64,000 nt of DNA from Bryobacterales bacterium (GTDB taxonomy: Bacteria > Acidobacteriota > Terriglobia > Bryobacterales > UBA6623): contig CBDCHL010000001.1 in the NCBI GenBank assembly GCA_965217195.1, forward strand, positions 182,175-246,174. Direction: 5' to 3'. Numbering within the stretch: position 1 is the stretch's first letter; every line of letters starts with the position of its first letter. Below are positions 39,932-62,223 of this stretch, one piece after another. The position numbers and the translations under genes were made by a program. The notes beneath the pieces are model-generated. The model was not told where the DNA came from and ran no database searches. It saw only the letters and a list, made by a program, of their open reading frames with translations.

Positions 39932-40386
39932 AGCCGTGGCGCGCGCGTTGCGATGCCTGCAATTCGGGCGGTGATTGCTATTGCGTCCTGAGATCAAACT
40001 CAGTCAGCGAAACCGTCACGACGCAAGAAACTCCAGCTCGGCTTCCACCAGCAACCCCTCTTGCCGGCGCCCAGTGCGTATTCCCGATAACAAGGAAACA
40101 CTAGTTCGCTTCGGTCGAATCCCCTCCCACCAGTGGTGTTGATGCATCAACGTGAGCGCTCGATCGACACGCCCCGCTTGATCGATGGTGATAACAATCG
40201 ATCTGTTGAGCAAAGGTTTTTTGCGGCTCCAGCGCCCGGCATCGGCTCGGTTTTCGGTCCCGGTTTCCGGCCCGTCGCCCTATCCGCCCCTACCCGCCCT
40301 GTCCCCGGATCGCCAAGTCGATTCGGGCGGCCGATTGCGGTCGCGCCCGACAACCTTGCCGTCTTTGCGGCTACCATAGCTGAACG

Positions 40387-42551: not shown

Positions 42552-42821
42552 CATCGGGTCATCGACAGATACTGCGAGAGTTCTGGCCCCCTAGGCCGTA
42601 ACGCCGCGCCGGAAGTTACTTCCTCCCCGTTAAGTCCCGTCTGCGAACGGCAATCGCGCGATTTTGGCCCGTAAGTCCTTGTAGTATCTATAACTTGAGA
42701 CCGGTATGGCGCTTCTGCAATCGGTAACCAATCGCTTCGGCCGCTCCGATTGCTAATGCTAACCCGATATCGCAACAGTTATCCGCGGACGAGCGCTATA
42801 TGGCTCGTTTCGGGGGGGCTT

Positions 42822-43065: not shown

Positions 43066-44043
43066 CTAAACAGCGCACAACTCGAACTGAATCCATTGTG
43101 CCTGCTGCGAGTGCCACCATCTGTGAAAGGCGCCCGAGCGTCTCGTAGCTGAATCGATGATCCGCGCGGGAACAACCACCCGCAGCGGGTCCACGTCGAA
43201 TGGATACGGCTTCAACGCGATCCGACGGGCGTCGGCGGGCCGCACCTCAATTGTCACCCTGTCCATCCAGCTTGCACGAGGGACTTCCAGCAGGTCGAAT
43301 GGATGTTCACCAAGTCCCGTGGCTTCGCCGGACAAGGGCGGGATGTGTGGGGAACACAACGACAACGATAGCCCATCGAGGAGTTGAAGCAGGCGCACAT
43401 TCGGTTTCAGGTTTTCCGGGTCGACCCACGATGCGGTGACTGGGTTCCCCCGAAGCCGGGTCGAGAAATCGGCCTGCTGCGCTTCGAGATCAGCGACAAA
43501 CTTGCGGGCTTCGTCGATAGATCCCCCGACGAGCTTTTCGGGCGCACGCTTCCAAAACAGGGGATGAAGAAACGCCGGATCGGGGTCACGTTTGGACCTA
43601 GCAGCGTAGAGCCAGTAGGCATGAAAGCTGATCAGCAGACTGACATAGGGATGCTCCTCGCTGAAACGGGGAATGCCCCGCTGCCAGCGGTCCATCCCCT
43701 CCTGTTGGTTCTTCAGCACCTCGGCAAGATCCAGCGGAAGATCGTCAAGACCCCCTAGCTCTGGAATGGCCTCCCATTCCCACCAGCCGTTGTCGTGTTC
43801 AGCAATGGCCAACACCGTCTCCGCACAAAGCTGCTCAGGATCGTGCGCATGGGCGAAGTGTCCGGGAGCGGCAAACTGATCATTTCCCCAGTGGGCCGCC
43901 AGATACCCAGCGACACCCCCGTGATCCGGCTGACTGACCAACCAGGTATAGTTGTCGCGGTGAGTTTTCAGCACTGCACTTGACTCCTTTTCCGATGGTG
44001 GACCGTCCAATTCTACCGTTTCGCGGATAGCTGTCGCGAACAA
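43066..44043 (-). CDS. Hypothetical protein, DUF3891-like (HD-related motif HDNGWWEWE)
   Basis: ..WLVSQPDHGGVAGYLAAHWG..VLAIAEHDNGWWEWE.. resembles DUF3891 as I recall it. Start (TTG 44043) uncertain. Confidence 0.45.
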   Translation of the reverse strand: MFATAIRETVELDGPPSEKESSAVLKTHRDNYTWLVSQPDHGGVAGYLAAHWGNDQFAAPGHFAHAHDPEQLCAETVLAIAEHDNGWWEWEAIPELGGLDDLPLDLAEVLKNQQEGMDRWQRGIPRFSEEHPYVSLLISFHAYWLYAARSKRDPDPAFLHPLFWKRAPEKLVGGSIDEARKFVADLEAQQADFSTRLRGNPVTASWVDPENLKPNVRLLQLLDGLSLSLCSPHIPPLSGEATGLGEHPFDLLEVPRASWMDRVTIEVRPADARRIALKPYPFDVDPLRVVVPARIIDSATRRSGAFHRWWHSQQAQWIQFELCAV

Positions 44044-44167
44044 TCGATGTCACAAACTATGACATTTTTTGTCCCCAGGTGCTTGAGACGGCTCGGGTTG
44101 CCGTCAGACGGACCTCGTGCTGAGGGATCCCTCACCGCCGATTGTCGAGTGGGAAATCATTTCTCGA
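44039..44167 (+). repeat. 130-bp structured repeat, copy 1 (inverted relative to 56422..56551)
   Basis: About 88% identity by eye to the reverse complement of 56422..56551. Contains ATGTCA-n7-TGACAT, the palindrome TGAGGGATCCCTCA, and a GTCGAG..CTCGA hairpin. Confidence 0.85.
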
Positions 44168-45055
44168 AACCTATCTCTCCACGGTGCCCCGGGGCTCCGG
44201 GGCATGCCCAAAGGGGCGCGGAGTTGGCTCGCTGGAACGTGCGATCCGGCTTCTAACGGACCGGAAGGTGGAGGGTACACCACACCACTCGGACGTCGCT
44301 TCAGCTTTATTGGTTGGAGGCGACGGGACTCAACAGCCCCAGAGGCCTTGGACCAGCGGCTTTCTCCCCAAACCGAGCAAGCCCTTCAACTGATGTTCAG
44401 CCTCCAGCGCGACGACGGCGCCTGGCACTCAGTGGACACTTGGCCGCCGTTTGAATCGGACGTCTATCAGCTCGCGACCGTCGCGGCGATGGGCGTGGGC
44501 ATGGCACCGGGATGGCTGGAGCAGGCCACGTCCGGCGAGCTGCCGAAACACATTTCCGGTCTGCGAGAGCACCTTGGACGGGTGGCTCCGCCGCATGACT
44601 ACGCCCGCGTAGCGTTGCTTTGGGCGGATCAATATTTCCCGGGCGTGATCGGCGCCGAGAACAAGCGGGACGTGATCAGGATGATCCTGGACCATCAGCG
44701 CCCGGACGGAGGATGGTCGATTCGCTCTTTCTCTGAGCCTGAGAAGTGGGGGCGGGGCAATCGCGCGGAACGCTTGCGAGCCGAGACAGACTTCGGCGAT
44801 CCCCCAAGTGATGGTCATCAGACTGGCTTGTCGGTTGTGGTTCTGTCGTCCGCGGGGGTGCCGCCAACTCACCCGGCTGTGAAGCGAGGTGTTGCCTGGC
44901 TCGAGGCGAACCAGAGACAATCGGGCCGCTGGTGGACGAAGTCACTCAATACGGACAAGTGGCACTTCATCACCTATACGGGGACACTCTACCCAGCGAT
45001 GGCCCTGGCGGTGACTGGTTCCGTGCCGAGTCTGAGGGATCGAAGTTTCGACTGA
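44117..45055 (+). CDS. Prenyltransferase/squalene-cyclase-repeat (alpha/alpha toroid)-like protein, probably 5'-truncated
   Basis: ..LQRDDGAWHSVDTWP.., ..LDHQRPDGGWSIRSF.., ..WLEANQRQSGRWWTKS.. are repeated QxxDGGW-type motifs. The N-terminal 50 aa or so of the ORF overlap the 130-bp repeat and are unlikely to be coding. Confidence 0.5.
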   Translation: MLRDPSPPIVEWEIISRNLSLHGAPGLRGMPKGARSWLAGTCDPASNGPEGGGYTTPLGRRFSFIGWRRRDSTAPEALDQRLSPQTEQALQLMFSLQRDDGAWHSVDTWPPFESDVYQLATVAAMGVGMAPGWLEQATSGELPKHISGLREHLGRVAPPHDYARVALLWADQYFPGVIGAENKRDVIRMILDHQRPDGGWSIRSFSEPEKWGRGNRAERLRAETDFGDPPSDGHQTGLSVVVLSSAGVPPTHPAVKRGVAWLEANQRQSGRWWTKSLNTDKWHFITYTGTLYPAMALAVTGSVPSLRDRSFD

Positions 45056-45292
45056 TTGATGAAGTTTGCCGGCTGCTGATCGAGGTCCTGGACCCAAAGT
45101 TGCCTATCTGCGGCCCCGGCGAGAAACGCGATATGCCTTCCATTGGGCGAGATCGCAAGGTCGGTGCTGTAGGGGTCGGTTCGGACAGTTTGTCGGCGGC
45201 GTAAACGAAAAGGGGGTTAGAACGAAGCCGCTCGCGCGACGGACGCTACGCGTGGGGGGATGAGAACGGGGTTTCCCTAAAAGAAATATCTT

Positions 45293-45323
45293 GGGTCACA
45301 AGAAAGAAGGTTTCTTGTGACCC
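45293..45323 (+). promoter_or_regulatory. Perfect 13-bp hairpin GGGTCACAAGAAA-gaagg-TTTCTTGTGACCC enclosing an SD-like loop and the GTG start of an integrase remnant
   Basis: Arms at 45293-45305 and 45311-45323. The loop GAAGG looks like a ribosome-binding site, and GTG 45317 lies in the 3' arm. Confidence 0.5.
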
Positions 45324-45415
45324 GTTTACGCAAAACGATGCTGGAAGAACTCCAGCGTCGCAATTACTCTCAGACTACCGTAAAGGCCTACCTGAGCACC
45401 GTCGAGGCCTTTGCC
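45317..45415 (+). pseudogene. Tyrosine integrase N-terminal remnant (about 33 codons)
   Basis: MTRLRKTMLEELQRRNYSQTTVKAYLSTVEAFA parallels the N-terminus of the remnant at 30048. The similarity then ends. Confidence 0.65.
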
Positions 45416-45530
45416 ACAGATGACCTTGGGAGTCACACCGGTACCCCACACGCCACCAGTTCGGTGGATCGTGCGAAAGATCCGTCCGGTTGTGATACGG
45501 CCGGCGCTCGTCCAGTCGTCGACCGCACAC

Positions 45531-46763
45531 TTACAGCGCCGCCGGCAAACGAGCGATCACGCCCATCTCTTCCCACTCCTTCAACTTGCGGTGAATCTCC
45601 CCGGCGTGTTGGAACTGCGGCGCGGCTTCGAGAAACCTTCGCATTGCGGTGGCGGCCTTGGGATGGTCGCCCTTCCGAGCATGCAGGAACGCCGCCATGC
45701 GGAACCCCTGCGGGAAACGGCCGGCGTCTTCACTGGCTTGGAAAGCGTCCAGAGCCTTCTCAACCGTGGAGACCTCCCCGAGATTGAACCCGGCCACGGC
45801 GTGATAGTAGGCGGCCTCCCCCAGGTAAGGATTCAGGCGTCTGCACTTCTCCGCCAGCTTCGCCGCGCGCTTCCAATTTTTCTCTGTCAGCTCCATGCGG
45901 ATCAGCGGGAGGCGTCAAGTAGCTCGGGTCGGCGTCGATGGCCTTTCCAAAAGCCTGGCGGGCGCCCTGCCTGTCTCGTGTCCTCATCCGCAGGTCCCCC
46001 AGCATGCTCCAAGCGGCAGCAAACTTCGGAAACTTGTCGACTGTCTTTTCGAGTTCTCCGACCGCCTTTTCCACATTGGGCTTCTTCTTGCCCATTTCCT
46101 TGAGCGCCTTCTCGAACATCTTGTGGCCTTTGTCGGGAAGCTGCAAAGACGTGACGCTCACCGAGTTCCCGGCGGCCTTATTGATGGAACGAAGCACGAA
46201 CGTTCCCAGGTCCGAGTCGCCGATCGACCGCCGGCCCAGCGGAAGGCGGCTCGGCCGGTAGCCGGTTAATTCGGCGCGCACCTCGCAGCCAGTCAAGTCG
46301 ATGGTCCCCGAGCCGTGGGTCGTCGTCCGCCCAAGCCTCCGAAGGCGATGTTCAGCGGATCGTCGAAACCGTCGTTGGCCAGGGTGCCGGTTGGTCCGCC
46401 CTCGGGGCCGCCGGGAACCCCCGACCGGGAGGCGTCGCCGGTGGCTTCCCTCGAGTTTTCCGCCGGCCGGAAGCTAAAATACCCCTTCAAGTTGGAATAC
46501 CCAACAGGGCGTGTCTGCCCGTTGCAGTACATTTGAATCACGACCGGCGCGCCGGGCGACGAGCCGTCTTCGAGCGTCACCTGACCCTCAAGATACATGT
46601 TGCGGCGCATCTCGATACCGGTCTGCTGTGGTTGGCCGGGATTGCGCGGCCGCGCGCCGGGCAGCGGGGTCCCCCCTTGGCCGCCGATCCCTTGCGCGGA
46701 AGCAGGCAAGGTTGACAGCCCCGCCAAAACGAGCAATAGAGCGGGGCGCAGCGTGACCAACAT
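45531..46763 (-). pseudogene. CarboxypepD_reg-like domain + TPR repeat protein, broken by two frameshifts (about 46290-46330 and 45896-45915)
   Basis: Three consecutive minus ORFs. 46293..46763 has the signal MLVTLRPALLLVLAGLSTLPASAQ and ..VTLEDGSSPGAPVVIQMYCNGQTRPVGYSNLKGYFSF. 45760..46296 has ..TGCEVRAELTGYRPSR... 45531..45896 has TPR ..RLNPYLGEAAYYHAVAGFNLGE... They join as ..AIDADPSYL/PLIRMELTEKNW... Confidence 0.75.
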
Positions 46764-47177
46764 AAGAACCCCAATCAGGATGACCTGACAACTTAACCAG
46801 GATTTCCCTGGCACTGTGACAGTATACAGCCACGCCGCAACGAATACTACGTGTTTTCGCGCTGAACCCTGCACATCACCTCCCCCGATAGGCCCCAAGC
46901 CCTGTCCGTCCGCTCTCAGGCAGTGATTGAGCGGGCTGAACGGCGCTCCGGCCGACACCTCTCCATGCGAAACCTTTTCGGAACCAAAAGCTGTTGATCC
47001 TCGTGCAGGCAACGCTACCCGCTCGGCAATGGCAGCGCCCAGATCCGACTTAGCATGCCGCCAAACAGCCCGCGGTTCAGATGCCCCTCGGCCCGCAGCA
47101 GCCACCTTGAGTGCTTTCACACCCGCATAAATAAAGGCGTCCGAGGCAGTCGAAAGGTTAGCCGAACCGAGGCTAAA

Positions 47178-48234
47178 GTGGGAATCTGGGCTAAGCTAAA
47201 GGCATTGTCAAGGCTGGAATCAGCGGCTATTTTTGTTACCTTCGGCGCCCTCGTGTGCGTAGTGCCGGGCCACTCGGCCGAGAAGCAGACCCTGCCTTCA
47301 TTCCGCGACATCACCGACGAAGCCGGCCTCGCTTACAAGATCACTTGCGGAGATCCAGTCACCAAGTCTCTGCTCGACGTCAACGGGCAAGGCGCCTGCT
47401 TCCTCGACTACGACGGCGACGGGCGTCTGGACATCTACCTTGTCAATGGATCGTCGCGCTCCCTCGATCTTGCCGGCAATCCTCCCCATGACTACTTGCT
47501 CAAGAACCGAGGGGACGGCACATTCGCGGATGTCACAAAAGGCGCCGGCCTCGGGGACACAAATTGGTCGAGCGGCTGCGCTGTCGGCGACTACGACAAC
47601 GACAGCGATCCGGACCTCTATTTGACCAACTATGGGCCCAATAAGCTCTACCGCAACGATGGCGGAGCTTTTCGAGACGTGGCGGAGAAAGCCGGCGTCG
47701 CCGGGCCGGAACGGACACCCCCAAAGTGGAGCATACGACGGCCAGCAGGATCTGCTTTATCTGAATAGCGGAGACGGTACTTTTCGTGACGTTAGCGCCA
47801 CGGCCGGCATCATCCAAGAAGAGCCGGGCCATGGCTTCGCCGCGGTTTTCTCTGACTACGACGACGACGGCGACCAAGACCTCTACGTCGCGAACGACTC
47901 GGGGCCGAACTTCTATTACGCAAACAACGGTGCCGGGACCTTTGAGGACATCAGCTGGGAATCGGGCGCAATGGTCAATGAGCATGGGGAGCCTGAAGGC
48001 TCGATGGGCCTCACGGTCGGCGACTACAACAACGACGCGCGGCTCGATATCTTCATCACGAATTTCATCGAGCAATCCAACACGCTCTACGAAAACGACG
48101 GCGACAACATGTTCCTCGACCAAACGACCAGCCTGGGCCTCGATCCGGTGGGGTTCAACTATAGCGGGTGGGGCACGAAGTTCATTGACTTCGACAACGA
48201 TGGCCGGCTGGACCTTTTCATTACCAATGGACAC
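47178..48234 (+). pseudogene. CRTAC1/ASPIC-UnbV family FG-GAP repeat protein, 5' part (also frameshifted near 47730-47745)
   Basis: Signal from GTG 47178. Repeats ..FLDYDGDGRLDIYLVNG.., ..VGDYDNDSDPDLYLTNYGPNKLYRNDG.., ..FSDYDDDGDQDLYVAND.., ..VGDYNNDARLDIFITNF.., ..FIDFDNDGRLDLFITNGH. Family similarity stops after ..ITNGH (48234). Confidence 0.75.
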
Positions 48235-48442
48235 ACAGATGAACGCCTAGGCCTGCCCAGCCCCATAGCGCAAGACCACAAGAAAGCAGTCCCCGCGGAA
48301 GGGCCCTGTTTTCCATGGCCGTGCCAAAATGTGGCCAAGAAAACTTCAGGCCGGACAGAACCGCTGAAATAAGTCCGCGGTGGAAGCGGCGCGGGGCAAG
48401 CCCAAATGAGGCTCCACCACACTACCGCTCGGCCCCGGAAGG

Positions 48443-49003
48443 CTATTCCAGAGGCGGTAAGGGTTCAACCCGAAGCGCCTGCCCCTCGACCGCCAGATAG
48501 AACTTGCCGGCCGCCACCGCGTCGTGCCGGTCTTCCCGGCCGGAAGGCCAGCGAATGCCAATGTCCGCCGAGGTGGTATCTCCCAGGCCCACGTGGACTC
48601 GCAGGTCGTTGCTCGATAGGTAACTGTCGCTGCCCCGCACCTCGAAAACGCGCTGCTCGCCCCCGGCCGCGACGACAATTTTGGCGCCAATACCGTCTCG
48701 GTTGCTCGCCACCCCCTGAGTTCGAATCGCGAGCCAGTTCCGGCGGTTTCCACCGCTGTTCAGCAGAAAGGTGGGAATGTCGTTCTTGTTGATCACGAGA
48801 ATGTCTACGTCGCCGTCGTTGTCAAAGTCGGCGAAGGCGGTGCCGCGGCCCACGCGATTCTCAACCTTCCGCATGCCGACCGAGTTTGAGACGTCCACGA
48901 ACCGTTTGCCCGCGCTATTGCGCAGCAAGTAATTCGGCTGGGCATAGGTGTCCGCCGGAAAGCGCTTCTCCAACACGTTGGCCAAGTTGGACGGAACGGG
49001 AAC
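48443..49003 (-). pseudogene. CRTAC1/ASPIC-UnbV family protein, 3' part, on the opposite strand
   Basis: VPVPSNLANVLEKRFPADTYAQPNYLLRNSAGKRFVDVS..GRGTAFADFDNDGDVDILVIN..NWLAIRTQGVASNRDGIGAKIVV..RGSDSYLSSNDLRVHVGLG..IRWPSG (UnbV/ASPIC C-terminal domain). It starts where the + strand part ends. Confidence 0.75.
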
Positions 49004-49379
49004 CGAGAACGCGCAGGGGGCGGACGGGCGTAGCGCCCGCTGGCAGAACCCCATCGAAGCCCACGTGAAAACGCTCAGCTCCGATGACATGCGCAACAGC
49101 GCCTTTATGGCCTGGACCTATCAACTGCCCTTCATGAGGGATAAGAAGAGGGGTCTGGCGAAGCTCGTCGGCGGCTGGAGTTTTTCCGGCGTCTTCCGGG
49201 TTGACCAAGGACGGCCTCTCAACATCTTCATGGCGAATGATATGGGCGGCATTCTGTTCAATCCCCAGAAGCGTCCCAATCGTGCCGGCGGCGAGGGGAC
49301 AACGAGCGGCAGTTTCGACCCCAACGCCGATCGCTACCTCTCTTCGTCCGGGTGGACCGATCCGGGTTCGTTCAACTTT
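49004..49379 (+). pseudogene. Fragment resembling the C-terminal barrel region of a TonB-dependent receptor-like outer membrane protein
   Basis: ..WTYQLPF..LAKLVGGWSFSGVFRVDQGRPLNIF..FNPQKRPNRAG..SFDPNADRYLSSSGWTDPGSFNF. No N-terminal plug and no terminal Phe strand. Confidence 0.35.
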
Positions 49380-49382
49380 GAG

Positions 49383-49539
49383 ATCACCGTCGTTGTCGAC
49401 GTCGGCGAAGGCCGCGCCCTCCGGGGCTGGACAAACCGAGGAATCGGTTCGCGGCAAGCGTGGACGCTCACGCGTTGGCTTGCCCAAACAGGGATGCCAC
49501 GGAGCAGAGGAGCAGAAGGAAGACTTGAGCTTTGCGCAT
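49383..49539 (-). pseudogene. N-terminal stub (signal peptide plus first FG-GAP motif) of another secreted repeat protein, frameshifted
   Basis: MRKAQVFLLLLCSVASLFGQANA from ATG 49539, then a stop. ..GAAFADVDNDGDL follows in another frame. Confidence 0.3.
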
Positions 49540-49625
49540 TACAGGAGACCTCTCTAGACCCAGCAGAAAGAAGGCAGACTGCACCCGTCGGCCCTCAAAT
49601 ATATCCCAGGGCGACCCCGAGGTAA

Positions 49626-50189
49626 TTATGAGGCAATTGCGGATGCTGCGGCAACACCCGCGCAACTGCTGCTCGATGTCTGCCCAGCCGTCTGCTCGCT
49701 GTGCCGTGCGAACATCAGTCGCCGTAGGACTTCGGCGTCCGCCATGCTCGGGTGGTAGTTGCCGTTGGTTTGTCGTCGGTCGGACTCAGAGGAAACTCCG
49801 TTGATCTTGGCCTTTCGACTTTGTTTTGTAGGATTTCGATCGACGATGTTTTTTGTGTGTGCAGCGTAGTGCACAGGTACCCGTGCAGTCGGTTGCACAG
49901 GTTCAGGGCAAAGGAAGCGGTATTTCGTGGCAAAACCAGGACGAAAAACCCTCTTAACGAGGTCCTGCTTCTCGAGTTGTTCAAGAGCCTGGAAGGCGGT
50001 TCGTCGCTTGAGTCCGGTGCCGTGGCTGAGTCGCGTACCGTCCTTCTTGAACACTCCATCGGTTATCTGCTTCACCGAGATCGCCTCCTCCTTCTGGAAC
50101 CCTGCAGTCTGCCTACATTCGAAAAGCCACACGCGCACCTCCGCGGCCGGCAGACGTGCAAGCCAGTAGTCGATGAAGGCGTTGGGCAC
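49626..50189 (-). CDS. Phage/plasmid replication-protein-O-like winged-helix protein
   Basis: GTG start: VPNAFIDYWLARLPAAEVRVWLFECRQTAGFQKEEAISVKQI..LKRRTAFQALEQLEKQDLVKRV is typical of the N-terminal wHTH of replication initiators of mobile elements. The C-terminal half is low-complexity. Confidence 0.55.
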   Translation of the reverse strand: MPNAFIDYWLARLPAAEVRVWLFECRQTAGFQKEEAISVKQITDGVFKKDGTRLSHGTGLKRRTAFQALEQLEKQDLVKRVFRPGFATKYRFLCPEPVQPTARVPVHYAAHTKNIVDRNPTKQSRKAKINGVSSESDRRQTNGNYHPSMADAEVLRRLMFARHSEQTAGQTSSSSCAGVAAASAIAS

Positions 50190-50255
50190 TTCGTGTACGG
50201 CGCGTCGTCAGTTGGGGTGAATCGCTCGCCGGATTTCATGGCTGCCGGAATACTG

Positions 50256-50490
50256 CTAGGAATCCGGGATAACTAGGAAGATCTCTCTGATTGGCTTCGA
50301 CGAGCCTCCATGCGGCTGCCGGTCCAGCCATTCCATTACACCGCAGCGGGAGTACCCAGCCAATCTTCCAATCCTTCTGAACCGAGGACCCTCTCCCAAG
50401 ATCCGCCACCTCCGCAACGTGGCGACGGACACCCAATAGGTGCGCTACGTGGCGGCCGCTGAGGGCGGAAACCGTCAGCGCACTAGCCCG
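50256..50490 (-). pseudogene. AlpA/excisionase-type HTH gene with an internal frameshift (about 50421-50440)
   Basis: Frame a: ..LTVSALSGRHVAHLLGV. Frame b continues SVATLRRWRILGEGPRFRRIGRLAGYSRCGVMEWLDRQP (classic ..LGVS..T(L/I)(Y/R)RW..G..P..(I/V)G). The listed ORF 50236..50667 carries only frame a. Confidence 0.6.
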
Positions 50491-50766
50491 GCTAAAGATT
50501 CCTCTTGGTTTGAAGCGGCGACGGGAGACCAGACTGGGATCGACAGCTTCAACTTGACGTGACACATAGCTTGCGACTCTAACCCCTTCGACTGTCGGAT
50601 AGCCCCACTTCGCCCTGGGGCTCGCGCCCGCAAGGTAAGAAAGACTCTGCCCATTTTCTGCCCACAAAAGTGAGCATCTGCTCCTTTTAGGGCATACCGC
50701 CGCTCTTACCGAAATTCCGGTGTTTCTGGCAAGTGACTTGTTTACAGTGGATTATGCCGAGGATGT

Positions 50767-50832
50767 TGGCGGGCGCGGCAGGACTCGAACCTGCGACCCT
50801 CTGCTTAGAAGGCAGATGCTAGCTTCACACCC
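50767..50832 (-). tRNA. tRNA-Arg(UCU)-like sequence lacking a D-arm (66 nt): degenerate tRNA or att-site remnant, probably not functional
   Basis: The minus strand reads GGGTGTG-AAGCTAGCA-TCTGC-CTTCTAA-GCAGA-GGGTC-GCAGG-TTCGAGT-CCTGC-CGCGCCC-G-CCA. The anticodon arm, T-arm and a 7-bp acceptor (2 G-U pairs) are intact, but only 9 nt sit where roughly 19 nt of D-arm should be. Confidence 0.5.
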
Positions 50833-51339
50833 TTTCCATGGTTTCCCTTTACTTCACAGAGACTTGCATCGTTTCGGGGCGTCTGCTTTCGCTCAAGCCA
50901 CAACCCCGTTAGCCTCAAGGACATGGGTTTTTGACACATTTTTAGCACAGCAAACGTGATCGGGAACGAGCGGCATCCTAACGATTGCCTGTCGTAACAA
51001 AAACAGGGGTACTCCAGCGGCGCTCTCTTCTGTCTGGAGATGCCGACAAGCTGGTATGTATGCACCCCCTTAGCCAACTCGCAATCTGCAGTCATGCGCC
51101 AGGTCGGTGATGCTCACGTGATCTCGCCCTAACCGGTCTGCGGCTCTTGGTCGCGATCCAGTTGCTCAGTCTTCCCCTTTTTCGTTTGTTCTTGTGCGGG
51201 GGCTCCCTCTCCACTTTTGGGGACTCCGCTTCTGCTCGGCCTCCGTAGATTTTCGGACTTGCAGACGCGGGGTTTGTCCTGAAAACGTAGCGATCCCTCG
51301 CTCCTGACTCCCGCCTCATAAAAAGTGGAGGTGGTCGCT

Positions 51340-51510
51340 ATGACCGCACAAGACGAAAAGAAGGAATACCGAAAGAACGTGCCGGAGCTGGAGACGCGTG
51401 TCCGGCTCAGCCAAGACCGCAAGTGGGTGATCTCCCAAACCGTGCTTACCGACATCCGGCCGGCAACGTACTTTGAGCGGATGCTCGCGGACAGGGGTGA
51501 GGGGGCGTGA
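51340..51510 (+). CDS. Small hypothetical protein (56 aa)
   Basis: GGAGG lies 8 nt upstream of ATG 51340. MTAQDEKKEYRKNVPELETRVRLSQDRKWVISQTVLTDIRPATYFERML. Confidence 0.4.
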   Translation: MTAQDEKKEYRKNVPELETRVRLSQDRKWVISQTVLTDIRPATYFERMLADRGEGA

Positions 51511-51970
51511 GCCCACCCACCTCGGTCGTGCAGCGCGCGTCGGCTGATTTCACAGCTGGCTACCACGCGGGATATGAGGCCGCGGCAGGTCCTGCCTGCA
51601 AGAAGTGTCAGCACGAGATGTAACTCAACACTTTTCTCTTTTCTTCTGACGTGTGTTTCTCTGGGTGACGAGCTCAAGCAGCGAATGCGAGCACTGCAGC
51701 ACACAGCGTGACGCCCCCCAGTCCGTCAGTTCCAGAACAAAACCACCCTGCAACAACCTCCCCGCCCACCACCCAGGAATTGAGGCCGCTTTCCTCCTGC
51801 TCTCGGGCTCGCATACGCACCGTTCATGAAGGTTTCGCCTCAGGCTGAAACCTTCTGAGGGCAGTACGCTCGCTTCGAGCAGGCGCGGCACTTTTAATCA
51901 TCGCGGGGCTGAAGGGCAGGCCCCGCGAAGGGATCGTGGGAACCGAGCAAACAGAAAGGAGGTGTCGAAC

Positions 51971-52663
51971 ATGGGATATACACATTACTGGGAGCGAAGG
52001 TCGAACTTCGAGCAGCAGCCGTTCCAGCGAGTGGTGGCAGATTGCAAGAAATTGCTGCCGCTGTTGGAGCACGTTGGTATACCGCTAGCCGGTTGTGATG
52101 GAGAGGGAGTGCCCGAGTTCACCGACGGGCAGATCGCCTTCAATGGCGTGGCGCGATGTGGGCATGAGCAGCGCAATCTCGGCATTACGTGGCCGTCGCG
52201 TGGAGCGCATGGCGTGGCAGGCGCGGTGCAACGCGGTCCGCCGGTTACAGTCGGAGAGACGTTGTGTGCGGCCTTGACTGGCAAGTCAGAGGCATTGGCG
52301 CTCAGGGATAGTGACGTCAGCGACCAGTGGCTAGCGGGGTGCACGGTTTGCACACGCACCTGCGACGGGGACTGCAGCCACGAGTCGTTTGTGCTGCCAC
52401 GAACGTACCGCGTGGAAGCGTGGCAAAAGCTCCGAAACGAGCGCTGCTTCTGCTTCTGCAAAACGGCGTACAAGCCGTATGACCTTGCGGTGAATCTCGC
52501 GCTGATCATCGCCAAGCATCATTTGGGTCATGCGCTCCTTGTGGATAGCGACGGCAGCAGTGAGCAGTGGGACGAGGCGATGTTGATTTGCCAACAGGTT
52601 TTGGGCTTTGGCAAAGATTTCCGGTTGGCTGACCGGAAGAAGACACGACGAGGGGGTGAGTGA
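51971..52663 (+). CDS. Hypothetical protein (MGYTHYW.. family, uncharacterised; phage-associated in my recollection)
   Basis: AGGAGG RBS then ATG 51971. MGYTHYWERRSNF..IAFNGVARCGHE..FCFCKTAYKPYDLAV..VDSDGSSEQW. Confidence 0.5.
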   Translation: MGYTHYWERRSNFEQQPFQRVVADCKKLLPLLEHVGIPLAGCDGEGVPEFTDGQIAFNGVARCGHEQRNLGITWPSRGAHGVAGAVQRGPPVTVGETLCAALTGKSEALALRDSDVSDQWLAGCTVCTRTCDGDCSHESFVLPRTYRVEAWQKLRNERCFCFCKTAYKPYDLAVNLALIIAKHHLGHALLVDSDGSSEQWDEAMLICQQVLGFGKDFRLADRKKTRRGGE

Positions 52664-52668
52664 AGGTG

Positions 52669-52806
52669 ATGATTGAGCAAAGCGTCAAAGAGTACCCCAA
52701 GGAGTTGATAGAAAAAATGGTGATCTGTTGGAATTGTGGAGCAGGAGCCACAACGACCGTCGAGTGGCGCGACCTCTGCGCAGGATGTGCCCTCTATTTC
52801 AGCTAG
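52669..52806 (+). CDS. Small zinc-ribbon protein (45 aa; below the ORF-track size cutoff)
   Basis: My translation: MIEQSVKEYPKELIEKMVICWNCGAGATTTVEWRDLCAGCALYFS (CxxC..CxxC). Starts 3-6 nt after the upstream stop. Confidence 0.45.
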   Translation: MIEQSVKEYPKELIEKMVICWNCGAGATTTVEWRDLCAGCALYFS

Positions 52807-52817
52807 AGGTGATCTCC

Positions 52818-53000
52818 ATGAAACCGCACATATTCGGCGGCAACCGCATCAAGGCTTTCCAGCACAGAAGCTACAATTGGGGAACGTCGGCACCCCGGCA
52901 TCGGGCGTGTATGCATTGCGGTAAGGCGGTAGGGGATGACGACCTCCATTGGCACGCCCTCACCGGCAGATGCGCAGAGTGCGGACTTGGGCTGCCGTAA
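52818..53000 (+). CDS. Small zinc-ribbon protein (60 aa)
   Basis: MKPHIFGGNRIKAFQHRSYNWGTSAPRHRACMHCGKAVGDDDLHWHALTGRCAECGLGLP (CxxC..CxxC). ATG lies 12 nt after the previous stop. Confidence 0.45.
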   Translation: MKPHIFGGNRIKAFQHRSYNWGTSAPRHRACMHCGKAVGDDDLHWHALTGRCAECGLGLP

Positions 53001-53230
53001 GCTCGGCGCTACGGATATCGCTACAGAGGAACAGCGGCAGACGCTGACAGAGTTGGCACGCCAACACACCGAACTAGCCCAATCGCGCAGGCAGGGAAGT
53101 CGGAAAAGGCGAGGGTGGCGGCGGCCAATGCACTGCTCGACCGAGGCTACCTCAAGCCCCGACAGACTCTCTTGAGCAGCACGACCTGACTTCAGATGGC
53201 GAGCCGTTTAGGTTCACGATCAAGATCAAC
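53000..53230 (+). pseudogene. Phage terminase small-subunit-like remnant spread over three frames
   Basis: ..EEQRQTLTELARQHTELA.., ..KSEKARVAAANALLDRGYLKPRQT.. (the aa..LLDRG.GKP.Q motif), ..DGEPFRFTIKINGG.. lie in different frames. Cut by IS630 copy B at 53365. Confidence 0.35.
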
Positions 53231-53366
53231 GGGGGCGACAATTGAAACGACGAAACAAGGACCTTGAGGCGACGATCCACGACACCGCGCGGGGGTTGGT
53301 GTATCGGATAGAGAAAAATCCCGACGAAGGCGCTGTCAGGGGACCAGAAGGGCAGGAGGAGGCTTA

Positions 53367-54459
53367 TTGAATCTCGCAAAATAAAGTGACACCTTTTTGG
53401 GGTACGTACGTCTTTGTATGTATGGGAAATACAAAAGGCGTACGGCGGGATTTCGAGGCCCTGGAGAAGCGCCGTTTCAAAGCGATCCGGTTGGTCGAGC
53501 AAGGCTGTAGTCAGTCCGAGACAGCGAGGCGATTGAAGGTCGCGCGGCAAAGCGTCAGCGAGTGGCTGCGACGATACCGGCGTGACGGCGAAGCCGGGTT
53601 GCGCCAGGCCGGCCGCGCCGGCCGTAAGCCGCTGTTGGACGCCGCGCAGCTCGAACGCCTCGAGGCGTTGCTGCTGGAAGGCCCCGAGGCGCACGGCTTC
53701 CCGACGCCGCTGTGGAGCTGTCCGCGGGTCGCTCGTCTGATCGGAGACGAGTTCGGCGTGCGCTATCACGAGGGCCATGTCTGGAAGATCCTGCGGGCGC
53801 TCGGTTGGAGCCCGCAACGGCCCGTCGGCAAAGCGCGGGAGCGCAACGAAGAGGCCATCCGCGGCTGGCAGCGCAAGACTTGGCCGGCCATTAAAAAAAA
53901 GCCCGCAAAGAAGAACGTACGATCGTCTTCATCGACGAAAGCGGATTGAGTCAGAAGCCGCATCGTTGCCGCACCTGGGCGCCGCGCGGCGAGACACCGG
54001 TGTTGGAGTTCAACTTCAACTGGGACAAGCTGTCGGTGTCGGCCGGGCTGACGTTGCGCAACTTTTACTTCCGGCTCTATCCCGGCGCGATCGGCGAGCT
54101 GGAGGTCATCGACTTCCTGAAGGCTTTGGTGCGCCACATCGACGGCCCACTGCTGATCGTCTGGGACCGGCTGCCGGCGCACCGCAGCCGCCTGGTGCGG
54201 GAGTTCATCCAGCTCTCCGAGGATCACATCGCAACGGAGTACTTGCCGCCCTATGCGCCGGAGTTGAACCCGGTGGAATACATTTGGGCGTACTGGAAGC
54301 AGCACGAGTTGCCCAACGTCTGCCCGAAGGACTACTGGGAACTCGACGAGCGCGCCCGCAAAGCGCTGCGGCGAATGCGCCGCAAACCGCGCTTGATTAC
54401 CGCTTTCTGGAAACAGTCTTCTCTTTGTCTCGATTGACAGTATATTATGCGGGACTCAG
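53367..54459 (+). mobile_element. IS630-family insertion sequence, copy B (1,093 bp), TA-flanked; the target reconstructs to CTAG
   Basis: TA at 53365-66 and 54460-61. Flanks ..gaggct/TA/gtggtt. Near-identical to copy A in inverted orientation. Confidence 0.9.
53386..54437 (+). CDS. IS630-family transposase (ORF 53386..53949 and ORF 53946..54437 joined by a putative -1 frameshift at A AAA AAG, 53893-53901)
   Basis: Proteins identical to copy A. The slippery run of 8 A followed by G lies in the overlap of the two frames. Confidence 0.85.
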
Positions 54460-55250
54460 TAGTGGTTAATGATGAAATTCCGGATCGTGAGTCCGGCGGT
54501 GTCAACTCACTGGGCACGAAGCAACGGAATCAACCTCATTGATTCACCTTGCCGAAGACATTGCAGCCTTCGTCCCCCGACTCCTCACGAGAAGCCGAAT
54601 ATGGTGATCGGCTCGTTCTGAAGCGCACCAAAACTGGGCCGCCTGTCTCCGCCGGTCGGAGCTTACCGGAGCGATGGCCGGTGGACGGATTTCCGCCGCC
54701 TCCTCCGGCTCCCGAACATCCAGCGCTTGATTCGACGATCGTGCTTGACGAGCGTCGCGATCACTGTCAGCAAAATGCCGACCAAGGCCAGATCTAGAAG
54801 CTGGTAGGGCATAGGACTCCGACGCTTCCGGGGTTAATGCAAGCGGAAGCGCCGGCAGACGGAGACAAGGCGATAGAACGGAACAGTAAATAGACCTAGT
54901 GACTGAGCCATACGAAGATCCGGATGGCATGCGGTTGCCCCACGCGCCACATGCGGGAAACAGAAGCGCAAGGCTCGCCTTCGTCGTCTGCCAACCGGTC
55001 CGTCTTGAAACGAACGCTGTCAGCCGATCCGACATCCACCCATACGGCGGTGACGCCGAAACCCTCGCGCAATCACTCGTTGCAATCCAGAAAGCCGCTG
55101 CACTGATCATCCGCGAGATTCAACCCTCTCGCGCGCACCCGTCGAGTTCTCTTGGCCCGGTCCGGAGCGTCACCTCTCCCTCAAGCGACCGCCGTGCACC
55201 GGATCATTGTTTGGCGCGTCGCAAGCTCAACAGTTACCTAGATCGACATG

Positions 55251-56348
55251 CTACGAATCGGGACGGTGACTCCGTGCCGGACTCGCTGCCGTGGGGCCGC
55301 TCACAGGTTTGAGTTCGGCGGCATCGAGCCCTTGGAGGACTTCTTCGTCCGCTACCCGTTGACCCGTCCATCCCGTGTTTGCCGTCAGGTCTGTGATACG
55401 AGTCCGGACGACACAGAGCTGGATTCGGTCATTCACAGCCTGCCCCAGTTGTTGTTTGCAGCCGATATAACGTTCGGTCGTCAGCACCGAGGCGTGACCG
55501 AGCAGAAACTGGATCTGCTCCAACTCTCCACCCGCTTCATGACACAGCCTGGCGCAGGTGCGTCTCAGGTCATGGGGAGAAAGCTTCTGAATCCCCGCTC
55601 GCTGGGCACACTGCTTGACGACGTACCAGACCACATTCTGCGTCAATCCATGTCCCCACATCACGCCGTTCTTGCGGATCGCCCGGAACAGCCGGCCTTC
55701 CGTGATCTCCGCCGAGCAGACCCACTCATCCACCGCCTGCTTGACCCAACCCGGCATGGGCACCGTACGCACGCGGCCTCCCTTGCCGATCAGGTCAAGG
55801 ATCACCCAGTGCTGCTCCCGCTGTTGGATCTGATCCACGTCCAATTCGACCAGCTCGGAACGTCGTAATCCGCAGCCGAGCAGCAGACCCAGCATAGCGG
55901 CGTCCCTCTTGCCCCGGAGCGTATCGGTGCTGACAGCACTCAGCAGGCGCTGACCCTCGTCAGAAGTGAGCCAGTTGCCCATACGGCGACCCAACTGCTT
56001 GACGCCGCGGACCCGTCGAATGCCCGCGATGAGATCCGGGCTGAGCAGGCCGCTGTCGGCGGCTTCGGTAGCAAGACGGCGAACAGCCGCCATACGAACG
56101 TTGATCGTGGCAGCGGCCAGACGCAGACTTTCCAGGCGGAGGCGAAAGCGGAGCACGACGGCACGGTTGAGAGCCAGTCGCGGCTCCGAACAGTACCAGG
56201 CGATGAACTCCTCGATGGCACGGCCGTAGGACCGGCGAGACTGCAGAGACCCGAGAGTGTTGAGGACGCCGGCCTTGGCCTGTTCGAGTTCGGGCAAGGT
56301 GGGAGATTTCCTCCGCCGACGAGTACGTCGATGAGTCGATTGATTCAT
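55251..56348 (-). CDS. Tyrosine-type site-specific recombinase/integrase (apparently intact)
   Basis: ..GCGLRRSELVELDV (box I Arg), ..GKGGRVRTVPMP.., ..LSPHDLRRTCARLCHEAGG (HxxR), ..LLGHASVLTTERYIG (catalytic Tyr). The C-terminal tail is about 55 aa longer than I would expect. Confidence 0.85.
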   Translation of the reverse strand: MNQSTHRRTRRRRKSPTLPELEQAKAGVLNTLGSLQSRRSYGRAIEEFIAWYCSEPRLALNRAVVLRFRLRLESLRLAAATINVRMAAVRRLATEAADSGLLSPDLIAGIRRVRGVKQLGRRMGNWLTSDEGQRLLSAVSTDTLRGKRDAAMLGLLLGCGLRRSELVELDVDQIQQREQHWVILDLIGKGGRVRTVPMPGWVKQAVDEWVCSAEITEGRLFRAIRKNGVMWGHGLTQNVVWYVVKQCAQRAGIQKLSPHDLRRTCARLCHEAGGELEQIQFLLGHASVLTTERYIGCKQQLGQAVNDRIQLCVVRTRITDLTANTGWTGQRVADEEVLQGLDAAELKPVSGPTAASPARSHRPDS

Positions 56349-56421
56349 AGCTAAGCGGCCTCCTAATGCCGCCTGCCCAAGCTAGAATCTTTCGAGGTGG
56401 AAGTGTCGCAGCCGATCGCTG

Positions 56422-56551
56422 TCGAGAAATGATTTCGCACTCGACAATCGGCGGTGAGGGATCCCTCACAAAGAGGTCAGACTGACGGCAACCCACGCCG
56501 CCTCAGGCACCTGGGGACGAAGAAATGTCATAGTTCATGACATCGATTGTT
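56422..56551 (-). repeat. 130-bp structured repeat, copy 2, directly upstream of the integrase gene on its coding strand
   Basis: The reverse complement aligns with 44039..44167. Contains ATGTCA-n7-TGACAT, a perfect 16-bp palindrome GTGAGGGATCCCTCAC, and the hairpin TGTCGAG-13 nt-CTCGACA. Ends 74 nt before the integrase ATG (56348). Confidence 0.85.
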
Positions 56552-56751
56552 ATCACCAGCTATCATCTGTCAGTACAACCACGGCGTGTTCAACGAGGGT
56601 GTTTCCACACAGGGGCCATGCCCCGCGCCACATCGGCACCTACGAAAAAGCCGAGCCTCGCTAAGCAAAAACCATAGTGATGCGCGGCAACGTCACGCGC
56701 AAGGGACCAAGAACACACATGGTCACGGTGGAGTTGTTGCCACGCGGCCCG

Positions 56752-57147
56752 TTACTGCTGGTCCGCTCTGCCGAGCGTTTCGGCTTCCATCACCCGGGCG
56801 CCGCGCATGATGCCCCTGAAGGAATAATTCGCTTCGTGGCAGGCGTACTCTCGTAGACTCGGTTGTCCGTTGCCGGCCAGACGTAGCAGCACAGGCGGTC
56901 GAGCACAAATTTGACGAACTCGGTTACCGGTTGACCTGATATCTCTGGTTCCGCGGCAGTGACGCCCGTGCCTGTATGCGCGTACTTCACGCGCGCCAGC
57001 GTCCATCCCGTGTGTTCGATGGCGTTGCGGCTTTCGACCAGGCGTCCGGGACCAGGTGCGGGTGTGCCGCACATATTCCGCCAGCAGCGGGTCCGTGGCC
57101 TGAAGGGCAGCGATGCCCGCTTCAAACGCACCCTGCTGCTTGAACAC
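56752..57147 (-). pseudogene. Unidentified gene remnant spread over at least 2 frames
   Basis: ..FKQQGAFEAGIAALQATDPLLAEYV.., ..VTEFVKFVLDRL.. and the tail ..YACHEANYSFRGIMRGARVMEAE.. sit in overlapping minus ORFs 56752..57147 and 56790..57236. No family assigned. Confidence 0.3.
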
Positions 57148-57351
57148 TTGACGAGCTCAAACGCCTCATTGCCGCGATCACCAACAAGCGCGACCGCGCC
57201 TTGTTCTGATCGCCTATCGGCACGGGCTCCGAGCAAGCGAAGTCGGCCTCTTGCAGCTCCCTGACCTTGACCTCAAGCGCCTGACCATCCACGTGCACCG
57301 GCTCAAAGGATCCCTCTCCGGCGTCCATCCCTTGCAGCCGGACGAAGCCTA
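57144..57351 (+). pseudogene. Tyrosine integrase remnant, 5' half (1-nt deletion near 57206; interrupted after ..HPLQPDEA)
   Basis: ..DELKRLIAAITNKRDRALF / LIAYRHGLRASEVGLLQLPDLDLKRLTIHVHRLKGSLSGVHPLQPDEA (box I region). The N-terminal domain is missing. Confidence 0.75.
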
Positions 57352-57421
57352 AGCCCTCAATAAAAGGGTTTGCAGGATCATCTTGCTAGGATGAAATCCT
57401 GATCCAACCTAGCGGAGTTCC

Positions 57422-58582: not shown

Positions 58583-58707
58583 CGAAGTCGGCCGCCCGGG
58601 AAACCAACCCGCAACGAACCTCAACCCGTCCTCGGGCCCCCGCCAACCAGAATCATAGCCCCGAGCGAAAGCGACGGGCCATAGACCTCAATTCCGCTCA
58701 AAGCCTA

Positions 58708-58866
58708 CCTGCGCTCCCGCAAGCTCGACTCCCCTGTCCTGTTCTTGAGCAACCGTGGCGACCCCATCAGCCGCAAGACCCTCGACTGGCTCATCAAGAA
58801 GTACGGGCGGCAAGCGAAACTACCTCCTGACAAGTTGCACTTCCACGCCCTCAAGCACTCCATCGA
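58708..58866 (+). pseudogene. Tyrosine integrase remnant, 3' continuation (truncated before the catalytic Tyr)
   Basis: (Y)LRSRKLDSPVLFLSNRGDPISRKTLDWLIKKYGRQAKLPPDKLHFHALKHSI (box II HxLKHS). In frame with the 5' half if 57352..58707 is removed. Confidence 0.75.
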
Positions 58867-59280
58867 TCGCATGAACAATCCCGCGCCCCAGCGTGAACAC
58901 GGCCTTCCTGAGTGCACGGTAGTAGCTCCGGGCGGTCTTGGCTGAGGCTTGATCTTTGGGCCTGGACCCCGCCAAAAGTAGGATGGAATGGTTGCATCAC
59001 AGCCGTGGACGGGCTACGCTACCAGGCGGCGAGACCCAAAACTGAAACCCTTCCTCAAATGCTTCGCCCCCTCCTGCTGATCGCTTTCTTCCTGGCCTTG
59101 GCATTTGCCGGCACCGTTGACTCACATTCGAGAACTGGGAAACTTTTCTCCCCGACGGCGGCTGATTCGGCCACGTAAAGCGCTAGGATTGCAACCAGGA
59201 ACACCTCCCGCCGTTCGCTGTCTCGCTCTGTTCGGATGGCACCGATGTTGCCGAACAGCAGATGCTTCAAGTTTGATCCT

Positions 59281-59316
59281 GCGCCGCCTGCGCCGCCTGC
59301 GCCGCCTGCGCCGCCT
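59281..59316. repeat. Tandem repeat, 9-bp unit GCGCCGCCT x4
   Basis: Read directly. Encodes (APP)n in ORF 59236..59448, or poly-Arg on the other strand. Confidence 0.9.
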
Positions 59317-62171: not shown

Positions 62172-62223
62172 AACGCGGCATCGCACGACTGTCAATAACT
62201 ATTCTTAAGATAAATAATCAACA

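Follow-up and report, generated by a model that had tools for sequence, protein, structure and literature searches.

Dispersed repeats beside a Xer-like integrase gene in a soil acidobacterium, each made of two short probable recombination sites at which near-identical strains have swapped neighbouring DNA

Two similar sequences of about 150 bp lie in inverse orientation some 12 kb apart in a chromosomal contig of a Bryobacterales bacterium (GCA_965217195.1, CBDCHL010000001.1), and one of them directly adjoins the leader of an integrase gene, which raises the question of whether they delimit a mobile element, an invertible segment, or something else. Throughout, "the window" refers to the whole 64,000-nucleotide stretch of DNA that was analysed (contig positions 182,175 to 246,174, forward strand). 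The original prediction described the repeats as a structured inverted pair enclosing 12.4 kb and offered three readings: the termini of a mobile unit, recombination sites allowing inversion of the interior, or a duplicated operator or 5' leader of which the second integrase gene was lost.

The inverted repeat as such was confirmed. A BLAST comparison of both regions and a repeat search yielded one and the same alignment of 44026-44175 (+) with 56564-56414 (-), spanning 151 nt with 86.1% identity, one 1-nt gap and an E-value of 4e-46, which is slightly longer than the originally proposed 44039-44167 and 56422-56551. The three symmetric elements that had been described, ATGTCA-n7-TGACAT, TGAGGGATCCCTCA and GTCGAG..CTCGA, are present in both copies. 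The integrase ORF hits the Pfam family Phage_integrase at 1.5e-27 and its ATG lies 65-74 nt beyond the repeat, while copy 1 precedes an ORF with a weak SQHop_cyclase_C hit. On the contrary, the designation "structured" was not confirmed, since single-strand folding gave z-scores of only -1.3 to -2.1 against shuffled sequences, and the four stems showed no convincing covariation on five related copies, where the only compensated changes came from one poorly aligned divergent copy and other substitutions broke pairs. The term "pair" is misleading as well, because the window contains a third, degenerate copy start at 40180 and a collapsed site at 42748, and the family is dispersed genome-wide. 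The features relevant for the following considerations are:

40180..40215 (+): third site of the left type (IRL) with a diverged inner arm (GATCGATGGTGATAAC, centre AATCGAT, CTGTTGAGC..), upstream of an MFS transporter gene; its flanks are the same in all contigs
42748..42783 (+): collapsed site made of two outer arms (GATTGCTAATGCTAAC, CCGATAT, CGCAACAGTTATC), followed to 42849 by the tail of the type-A repeat and bounding the 3' side of the DUF3891 gene module
43066..43974 (-): DUF3891 gene, occupying the module position that Ser/Thr kinases usually hold and driven by the kinase-type -10 box TAGAAT (minus strand, 44010-44015)
44026..44175 (+): copy 1 of the 150-bp unit (c-type mini-module); similarity to copy 2 starts and stops exactly at the outer ends of its two terminal sites
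44026..44061 (+): left site (IRL) of copy 1, GATAGCTGTCGCGAAC, centre AATCGAT, GTCACAAACTATG
44140..44175 (-): right site (IRR) of copy 1, read on the minus strand, GATAGGTTTCGAGAAA, centre TGATTTC, CCACTCG..; by comparison with the other sites, the near-invariant CTG of the outer arm is changed to GTT, and this site is probably defective
44176..56413 (no strand): the 12.2-kb interior, not a coherent element, with a truncated SHC-like ORF, integrase fragments, FG-GAP/ASPIC pseudogene pieces, a damaged tRNA-Arg, an IS630 copy (53364-54461) and the integrase
55251..56348 (-): Xer-like tyrosine recombinase of 365 aa with the catalytic motifs GLRRSE, GKGGR, HDLRR, GH and Y present; proposed cognate recombinase
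56355..56373 (-): hairpin GGCGGCattaGGAGGCCGC enclosing the ribosome-binding site, conserved upstream of integrase homologues down to 70% identity and the only family-wide part of the leader
56414..56564 (-): copy 2 of the 150-bp unit, directly upstream of the integrase leader
56414..56449 (+): right site (IRR) of copy 2, read on the plus strand, GATCGCTGTCGAGAAA, centre TGATTTC, GCACTCGACAATC; homology to the sister-lineage integrase module starts just inside it, at 56409
56529..56564 (-): left site (IRL) of copy 2, GATAGCTGGTGATAAC, centre AATCGAT, GTCATGAACTATG; this is the synteny breakpoint
56565..64000 (no strand): module joined to copy 2 in this genome only (BNR protein, serine recombinase 61479-62195); in other assemblies the same DNA is joined through the same site to three other partners

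Whether both ends of the 12.4-kb segment move together was addressed by comparison with near-identical contigs (comparison DNA is designated by L numbers). The flank outside copy 1 is identical in the window and in all four contigs that span it (L003-L006), whereas the flank outside copy 2 differs in the window and in each of three contigs. The integrase-side homology of L001, L002 and L004 (99.8-99.9%) ends at 56559-56565, while the other-side homology of L008, L009 and L010 (99.9-100% over 7.46 kb) begins at 56538. Since the variable outer-arm bases stay with the flank, the exchange is placed inside AACAATCGATGTCA, which gives four partners on one side and three on the other. A second class of breakpoint lies inside the IRR centre: L008/L010 and L016/L020 are identical up to ..CATGCGAACC and then switch, inside AACC|GGA.

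The copies belong to a Bryobacterales-specific family of at least 25 distinct copies, most of which sit just upstream of Ser/Thr-kinase promoters. Each unit is bounded by two inversely oriented sites of about 36 bp, IRL and IRR, comprising a 16-nt outer arm (GATwsCTGkyGskAAm), a 7-nt centre and a weaker inner arm. A scan with the outer arm alone retrieved 25 distinct sites in 282 kb, as opposed to 0.7 expected by chance, and 18 of the 20 AAC-class sites have the centre AATCGAT. The centres are essentially identical within a lineage (AATCGAT here), while sister lineages keep the arms but use their own centres, namely AAGCCTT/AAGCCAA, AACGCAA, AGCCCTw and TCCCCTT; conserved arms with a lineage-specific centre are expected for a strand-exchange region and not for an operator. 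In these sister lineages, identical integrase proteins were found in four contexts (integrase P0008: L028-L031) and on at least four different kinase-promoter left flanks (integrase P0004: L035, L037, L041, L043). The outer arm is always flank-linked and the sequence is constant from the centre onward; the joining occurs exactly at the arm/centre border. Shared identity at these junctions is too short for homologous recombination. Moreover, a site of this type lies 80-100 nt upstream of the integrase ATG in homologues down to 70% identity (L026, L032).

The sites alternate in orientation in arrays. In L028 the order is IRL867/IRR997, PD40 plus kinase, IRL3899, integrase, IRR5852, further DNA and IRL8838/IRR8988; in L026 it is IRR3903, esterase, IRL4918, integrase, IRR5999, protease and IRL7375; and L002 holds three units in series.

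Taken together, these observations are interpreted, with moderate confidence, as a chromosomal module-reassortment system run by a Xer-like tyrosine recombinase. In this view, each 150-bp copy is a gene-less mini-module bounded by two core-type recombination sites, dozens of which lie in this Bryobacterales chromosome. Typically, the IRL outer arm ends about 8-10 nt upstream of the -10 box of a leaderless Ser/Thr-kinase gene and the IRR follows the 3' end of the preceding gene, whereby gene modules and mini-modules alternate. A tyrosine recombinase would exchange strands in the centre between sites that share the same centre and thereby re-pair whatever lies on the two sides, with inversion, or module replacement by two crossovers, as the outcome. 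Copy 2 would be an active junction and copy 1 a resident copy with one damaged site, whose inverse orientation relative to copy 2 is incidental. The analysis itself established the family, the anatomy of its sites, the breakpoints inside the centres, the lineage-specific centres and the repeated joining of one integrase to different flanks at the arm/centre border; recombination of the sites is well supported, while both the assignment of catalysis to the intact Xer-like integrase next to copy 2 and the topological outcomes are inferred.

Some observations weigh against this interpretation. Direct evidence that this integrase binds or cuts the sites is lacking, most sites are far from any integrase, and the orthologue in the reference MAG (L019) is split by a frameshift, which may be a real change or a sequencing error. 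No reciprocal junction, circular form or opposite orientation was recovered from the comparison DNA, all of which comes from metagenome assemblies, some at 4-9x coverage. Furthermore, the site lies over the -35 region of the kinase promoters, roughly -33 to -49, so a regulatory role could also constrain it, and copy 1 shows no rearrangement in the window or in the four contigs that span it despite having the same IRL centre as copy 2. One copy, L035, carries a different centre with the same integrase.

The interpretation offered by the original prediction is partly supported. It was right in spirit, in that the repeats carry recombination sites functionally tied, by inference, to the neighbouring integrase. 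The 12.4-kb mobile unit is not supported, since transposon or IS movement would provide new flanks on both sides and a target-site duplication, whereas the two ends never move together and no duplication is present at the ends. It is unlikely, though conceivable, that copy 2 is instead the attachment-site end of a very large integrative island (more than 56 kb) that carries the integrase at one end and inserts at kinase-upstream sites, copy 1 being irrelevant. The integrase side does stay constant for at least 21 kb while the other varies, as expected for an island inserted at different attB sites, and the P0004 lineage shows the same asymmetry. However, no directly oriented partner site exists anywhere in the 56 kb on the integrase side, that side carries ordinary chromosomal genes and continues colinearly in all contigs, and in the P0008 lineage the unit that moves is only 2 kb and both of its ends vary. 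Inversion of the 12.4-kb segment under control of the integrase is mechanistically allowed, as both copies carry an IRL with the identical centre AATCGAT in inverse orientation and the recombinase gene lies inside the segment. It is nevertheless considered unlikely, because the window and all three contigs that span both copies (L001+L003, L002+L005, L004) have the same orientation, the interior is a collection of pseudogenes with no obvious switchable gene, and the other site of copy 1 is damaged.

A duplicated integrase leader is refuted as stated: integrase homologues at 70-83% identity lack the 150-nt unit, and most family members precede or follow genes that are not integrases; the condition set beforehand for reducing the element to a leader duplication, namely that all other copies sit only upstream of integrase paralogues, is not fulfilled either. 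A structured RNA or 5' leader, or ordinary MITEs moved by a DDE transposase, are very unlikely. The units do have a discrete length and imperfect terminal inverted repeats of about 15 nt, and their ends can pair when folded; yet neither target-site duplications nor a transposase-bearing relative were found, the only larger relative carries the tyrosine recombinase, and exchange occurs inside the unit rather than at its tips. Rfam searches gave no match, and the consensus fold is weak at -5.7 kcal/mol. The strongest, albeit still unlikely, alternative is that the repeats are paralogous regulatory intergenic regions of an expanded Ser/Thr-kinase family, with the conserved box as a promoter or operator element (TTGAT-N4-ATCGA resembles an FNR/CRP-type site centred near -41) and rearrangements by ordinary homologous recombination between dispersed repeats. 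In at least nine copies the kinase start lies exactly 38 nt from AACAATCG, with a conserved -10 box TAGAAT; type-A copies carry fossil 3' ends of the upstream PD40-kinase gene, which shows duplication of whole intergenic regions; and breakpoints fall in the longest identical stretches, as homologous recombination would also predict. On the other hand, the centre is invariant within a lineage but replaced between lineages while the arms persist, which is the opposite of what an operator would show, and integrase modules are joined to flanks that share at most about 16 imperfect nucleotides, which is too little for RecA-type exchange. In addition, at least five junction variants occur among contigs that are 99.9-100% identical over 7-20 kb, a rate comparable to IS movement, and kinase paralogues without the element keep their promoter.

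Among the closest known systems are the dif modules bounded by pdif (XerC/XerD) sites in Acinetobacter plasmids (PMC13141974, PMC6449649). Common to both are discrete modules bounded by inversely oriented core-type sites with two alternating module classes, crossovers within sites and between sites with identical spacers, replacement of single modules through exchanges at a left and a right pair of sites (an outcome that is inferred here), and a Xer-like recombinase. However, the sites are unrelated in sequence and geometry, being about 16-7-13 with GATwsCTGkyGskAAm as opposed to the 28-bp, 11-6-11 ATTTCGTATAA-n6-TTATGTTAAAT, and comparison of the consensus by eye with published pdif sites revealed no resemblance. 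The present system is chromosomal, in Acidobacteriota, and typically sits at Ser/Thr-kinase promoters, many of its modules are gene-less units of 100-200 bp, and a dedicated integrase rides on a module and is inferred to do the work in place of host XerCD, a linked Xer-like integrase being all that is seen.

Integrons (IntI, attI, attC cassette arrays) likewise feature a tyrosine recombinase gene with an array of directly repeated, internally symmetric sites, here of 150-240 bp on its 5' side in L002, and each repeat has outer and inner inverted arms like the R''/L''..L'/R' arrangement of attC. Nevertheless, the integrase is not an IntI, as it scores 57.9 bits on TIGR02249 against a cut-off of 265, with XerD/XerC models as best matches, also below their cut-offs. 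No GTTRRRY / RYYYAAC cores are present in the two family alignments (A1 and A3), the modules are several kb long and have their own promoters, for example the kinase -10 box TAGAAT, and crossovers are seen at both ends of each repeat. In integrase-driven chromosomal inversions of Thermococcales (PMC5495485) and shufflon- or Fim-type invertases, a tyrosine recombinase acts on short dispersed chromosomal sites and re-pairs flanks in otherwise near-identical genomes, as is inferred for the present system, though inversion as the outcome is also only inferred here and was not observed directly. Moreover, the present sites are long, specific and organised as paired units at defined gene boundaries, and there is no clustered shufflon that switches a single gene.

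In a more far-reaching and tentative reading, which is somewhat less likely than not, Bryobacterales chromosomes carry a self-encoded analogue of the dif-module system, in which a mobile Xer-like integrase recognises a new palindromic site of about 36 bp placed at the promoters and 3' ends of PD40-type Ser/Thr-kinase genes, while each lineage keeps its own strand-exchange centre. Such a system would reassort kinase genes, other gene modules and promoter-proximal mini-modules around the chromosome, amounting to a genome-wide, recombinase-programmed shuffling of signalling-gene neighbourhoods.

Modules bounded by alternating Xer-type sites are so far described essentially for Acinetobacter plasmids, where how they move is still debated. 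A second, unrelated system, in the chromosome of an abundant soil phylum and with its own recombinase and lineage-specific exchange centres, would show that module reassortment by core-type sites is a general strategy. It would also constitute a compact natural set of sites with different centres, which is easily amenable to tests in vitro. Finally, it would offer an explanation for the frequent synteny breaks and the expansion of kinase families in large acidobacterial genomes.

The inverted repeat that had been identified from sequence alone in the original prediction exists, since positions 44026-44175 (+) align with 56564-56414 (-) over 151 nt at 86% identity with one gap (E 4e-46), and the three palindromic motifs that it had named are present in both copies. 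The interpretation offered along with this observation, namely that the pair might form the termini of a 12.4-kb mobile unit, the sites of an invertible segment or a duplicated integrase leader, was only partly supported. The window derives from a Bryobacterales (Acidobacteriota) chromosome, and the box motif of the repeat recurs 11 times in the 6.9-Mb MAG OZ250179.1. The features of the window that are relevant to the following considerations are:

44026-44175 (+), copy 1 of the repeat, which precedes a truncated ORF with an SQHop_cyclase_C hit and abuts a divergent DUF3891 gene
56564-56414 (-), copy 2 of the repeat, which lies 65-74 nt upstream of the integrase gene
55251-56348 (-), an intact tyrosine recombinase (integrase) gene (Pfam Phage_integrase, 1.5e-27)
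56355-56373 (-), the hairpin GGCGGCnnnAGGAGGCCGC, which encloses the Shine-Dalgarno sequence immediately before the integrase ATG
54879-55160, a stretch just downstream of the integrase, which appears scrambled in one contig
53364-54461 and 31345-32443, two IS630-family copies, the former inside the interior between the repeats
28902-29956 and 14348-14863, one full and one partial IS1595-family copy
50770-50832 (-), a tRNA-Arg(UCU)-like sequence
46806-47104, a member of another dispersed repeat of about 300 bp
45317-45787 (+) and 45419-45532 (-), fragments of a second, unrelated tyrosine recombinase
61479-62195 (-), a small serine recombinase gene in the DNA joined to copy 2

The reading of the two copies as ends of a 12.4-kb unit is not supported by the near-identical metagenome contigs (99.5-100% identity) that were retrieved by exact-protein look-ups, though it has to be considered that all comparison sequences are metagenome assemblies, some of them at low coverage. 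Four contigs cross copy 1 (L003-L006) and stay colinear with the window through DUF3891, the MFS transporter and the sulfatase as far as 35531. On the contrary, the homology of the three contigs that cross copy 2 (L001, L002, L004) stops at 56559-56565, and each of them continues into a different flank. Three further contigs, which were found through the BNR gene on the far side (L008-L010), match the window from 56538 to 64000 at 99.9-100% and then continue into three other partners. The two homology blocks overlap by 27 nt, GATAGCTGGTGATAACAATCGATGTCA, and since the variable bases of the first 13 nt stay with the outer flank, the exchange lies inside AACAATCGATGTCA. The window and the three contigs that span both copies have the interior in the same orientation. 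The DNA joined to copy 2 carries the small serine recombinase, HTH proteins and, beyond the window in L008/L009, a D5_N/primase gene, and looks like a separate integrative element.

The interior itself holds fragments, comprising integrase remnants, FG-GAP/ASPIC pieces, a damaged tRNA-Arg and IS630. The fragments of the second tyrosine recombinase lie about 1.2 kb inside copy 1 and consist of an N-terminal SAM-like domain and a 38-aa catalytic-domain piece on the opposite strand. The tRNA-Arg(UCU)-like sequence scores 51.5 bits on the Rfam tRNA model but lacks the whole D-loop and was missed by ARAGORN, which found nothing; it is probably a decayed tRNA or an att remnant of an old island. The IS630 copy inside the interior is absent from L001, L002 and L004, while other strains carry IS3 and reverse-transcriptase insertions at other points of the interior, which shows high mobile-element activity at this level of divergence. 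The IS630 and IS1595 copies in the window have unrelated ends. In L004, a contig of 4x coverage, six blocks of about 46 nt (L004 1823-2111, corresponding to window 54879-55160) appear in the order E' F D A C B', with two blocks inverted and no repeats at the block borders, whereas all other contigs and the 87%-identical orthologue keep the window order; this constitutes either an assembly artefact or an unexplained local scramble. Moreover, the dispersed repeat of about 300 bp (about 84% identity) lies at the 5' end of FG-GAP/ASPIC-type genes and also occurs in the fetched contigs L012, L013, L014 (two copies), L017, L021 (three copies), L028 and L030, often in two or three copies about 2 kb apart in loci that also hold the recombination sites.

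BLAST, a box search and an HMM of the non-box part recovered at least 25 distinct related units in 282 kb of fetched DNA. The similarity between copy 1 and copy 2 starts and ends exactly at two terminal motifs, which are imperfect inverted repeats of each other and which resolve across the family into two site types. The first, termed IRL, consists of the outer arm GATwsCTGkyGATAAC, the centre AATCGAT and the inner sequence GTCAyrAAC. The second, termed IRR and read on the other strand, is composed of GATTACTGTCGCGAAA, the centre TCCGGTT and CGCATGAAC in type-A units, and of ..GAGAAA, the centre TGATTTC and GCACTCG in the c-type units that include copies 1 and 2. A scan with the outer arm alone found 25 distinct sites against 0.7 expected by chance, and 18 of the 20 AAC-class sites have the centre AATCGAT. 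Ascertainment through the box pattern inflates the apparent conservation in the contigs L011-L024, yet the sites found independently of the pattern agree with the rest. A fourth box-like hit in the window, at 19500, lies in coding sequence and is a chance match. Two scans of the JGI metagenome collection, with the c-type core and with the box, returned nothing; the family is absent from that collection at exact-match level.

The IRL outer arm usually ends 8-10 nt upstream of a GGTAGAAT -10 box, which drives a leaderless Ser/Thr-kinase gene located 38 nt from AACAATCG. Since the site overlaps the -35 region of the kinase promoters, a regulatory role may coexist with recombination; kinase paralogues without a unit keep the -10 box. 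Type-A units extend past the IRR into the fossil 3' end (..NWYEEFRDREQD and stop) of the preceding PD40-kinase gene. A second class of breakpoints was observed in two pairs of contigs, L008 and L010, which are near-identical strains, and L016 and L020, which come from one genome. Each pair is identical through the whole unit up to ..GGATTGTTCATGCGAACC and then switches inside the IRR centre, AACC|GGA. Both site types are therefore exchange points, and in each the switch maps to the 7-nt centre. In addition, an IRL outer arm next to a kinase promoter in L020 (near position 26, minus strand), GATTACTGTTGATAAC, is followed directly after the arm by unrelated sequence (ACCTTCC..), which is what an exchange with a non-cognate partner at the cleavage point would leave.

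The integrase next to copy 2 is Xer-like and belongs to a large family: its best NCBIfam hits are XerD/XerC (about 124 bits, below cut-off), the integron model gives 58 bits against a cut-off of 265, and the closest solved structures are a XerC-like protein and XerD. In a sister lineage, an 83%-identical integrase (P0008) occurs with the identical protein sequence in four contexts, where it sits in a 2.0-kb unit whose copies are 98.5-99% identical. At the left junction of that unit the outer arm differs with each flank (GATACCTGTCGGG, GATACCTGGCGGG, GATAGCTGGCGGG, ...), while the sequence is constant from AACAAGCCAA onward; at the right junction the sequence is constant up to ..GGGAAGGCGATTTC, and then the outer arm varies. 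A second lineage (P0004, 85% identity) shows at least four different kinase-promoter flanks joined in the same way, and homologues at 70-73% identity (contigs L026 and L032) have a site of the same form 80-100 nt upstream of the ATG, with sites alternating around the neighbouring genes in L026. Each lineage has its own centre while the arms persist, namely AATCGAT, AAGCCTT/AAGCCAA, AACGCAA, AGCCCTw and TCCCCTT. The 150-nt unit itself is absent from these relatives, and only the hairpin around the ribosome-binding site is shared; the unit is therefore not an integrase leader. This hairpin, which was also found in L019, L025, L026, L028, L035 and L045, is conserved in homologues down to 70% identity and may control translation of the recombinase. 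Furthermore, an HU/IHF-type DNA-binding protein gene (Bac_DNA_binding) sits next to the integrase in two sister lineages (L035-L042 and L045/L046, integrase homologues at 85-86% identity) and may provide an architectural cofactor for recombination, though no such gene lies beside the integrase in the window.

Several other identities of the repeats were considered and rejected. Rfam scans of the whole window at gathering thresholds and of the repeat regions at E<=10 found only the damaged tRNA, and RNA folding and covariation tests on the c-type and type-A alignments were weak or negative; the unit is not a known RNA. It is likewise not an integron, given the score on the IntI model and the missing attC cores, nor a classical transposon, and the reading as a DDE-type MITE was rejected because there is no target-site duplication and the exchange lies inside the unit. 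A chromosomal dif reading was rejected because the sites are multi-copy and do not resemble dif. No description of the system was found in the searchable literature. The closest known system is the dif-module system of Acinetobacter plasmids (PMC13141974), which also features alternating inverse sites, crossovers between sites with identical spacers and single-module replacement through two exchanges. The present system differs in site sequence and geometry, in host and replicon, in its association with kinase promoters, and in carrying its own recombinase.

Taken together, the analysis demonstrates a dispersed family of paired core-type sites, strain-level and paralogue-level exchanges confined to their centres, centres that are uniform within a lineage and differ between lineages, and one integrase that was repeatedly re-joined to different flanks at the arm/centre border, where shared identity is too short for homologous recombination. 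That the linked integrase catalyses strand exchange between sites with matching centres is, by contrast, an inference, as are the outcomes attributed to it. Copies 1 and 2 share the IRL centre in inverse orientation, so inversion of 44.0-56.6 kb is possible, but it was not observed; the IRR of copy 1 has lost the conserved CTG, and a search among the fetched contigs recovered no reciprocal junction product, circle or inverted form. Because the IRL and IRR centres differ, the two ends of one unit should not recombine with each other, which fits the constant orientation of the units. In this view, strand exchange by the linked integrase would give inversions when the sites are inverse, and module replacement when a left and a right pair are both used.
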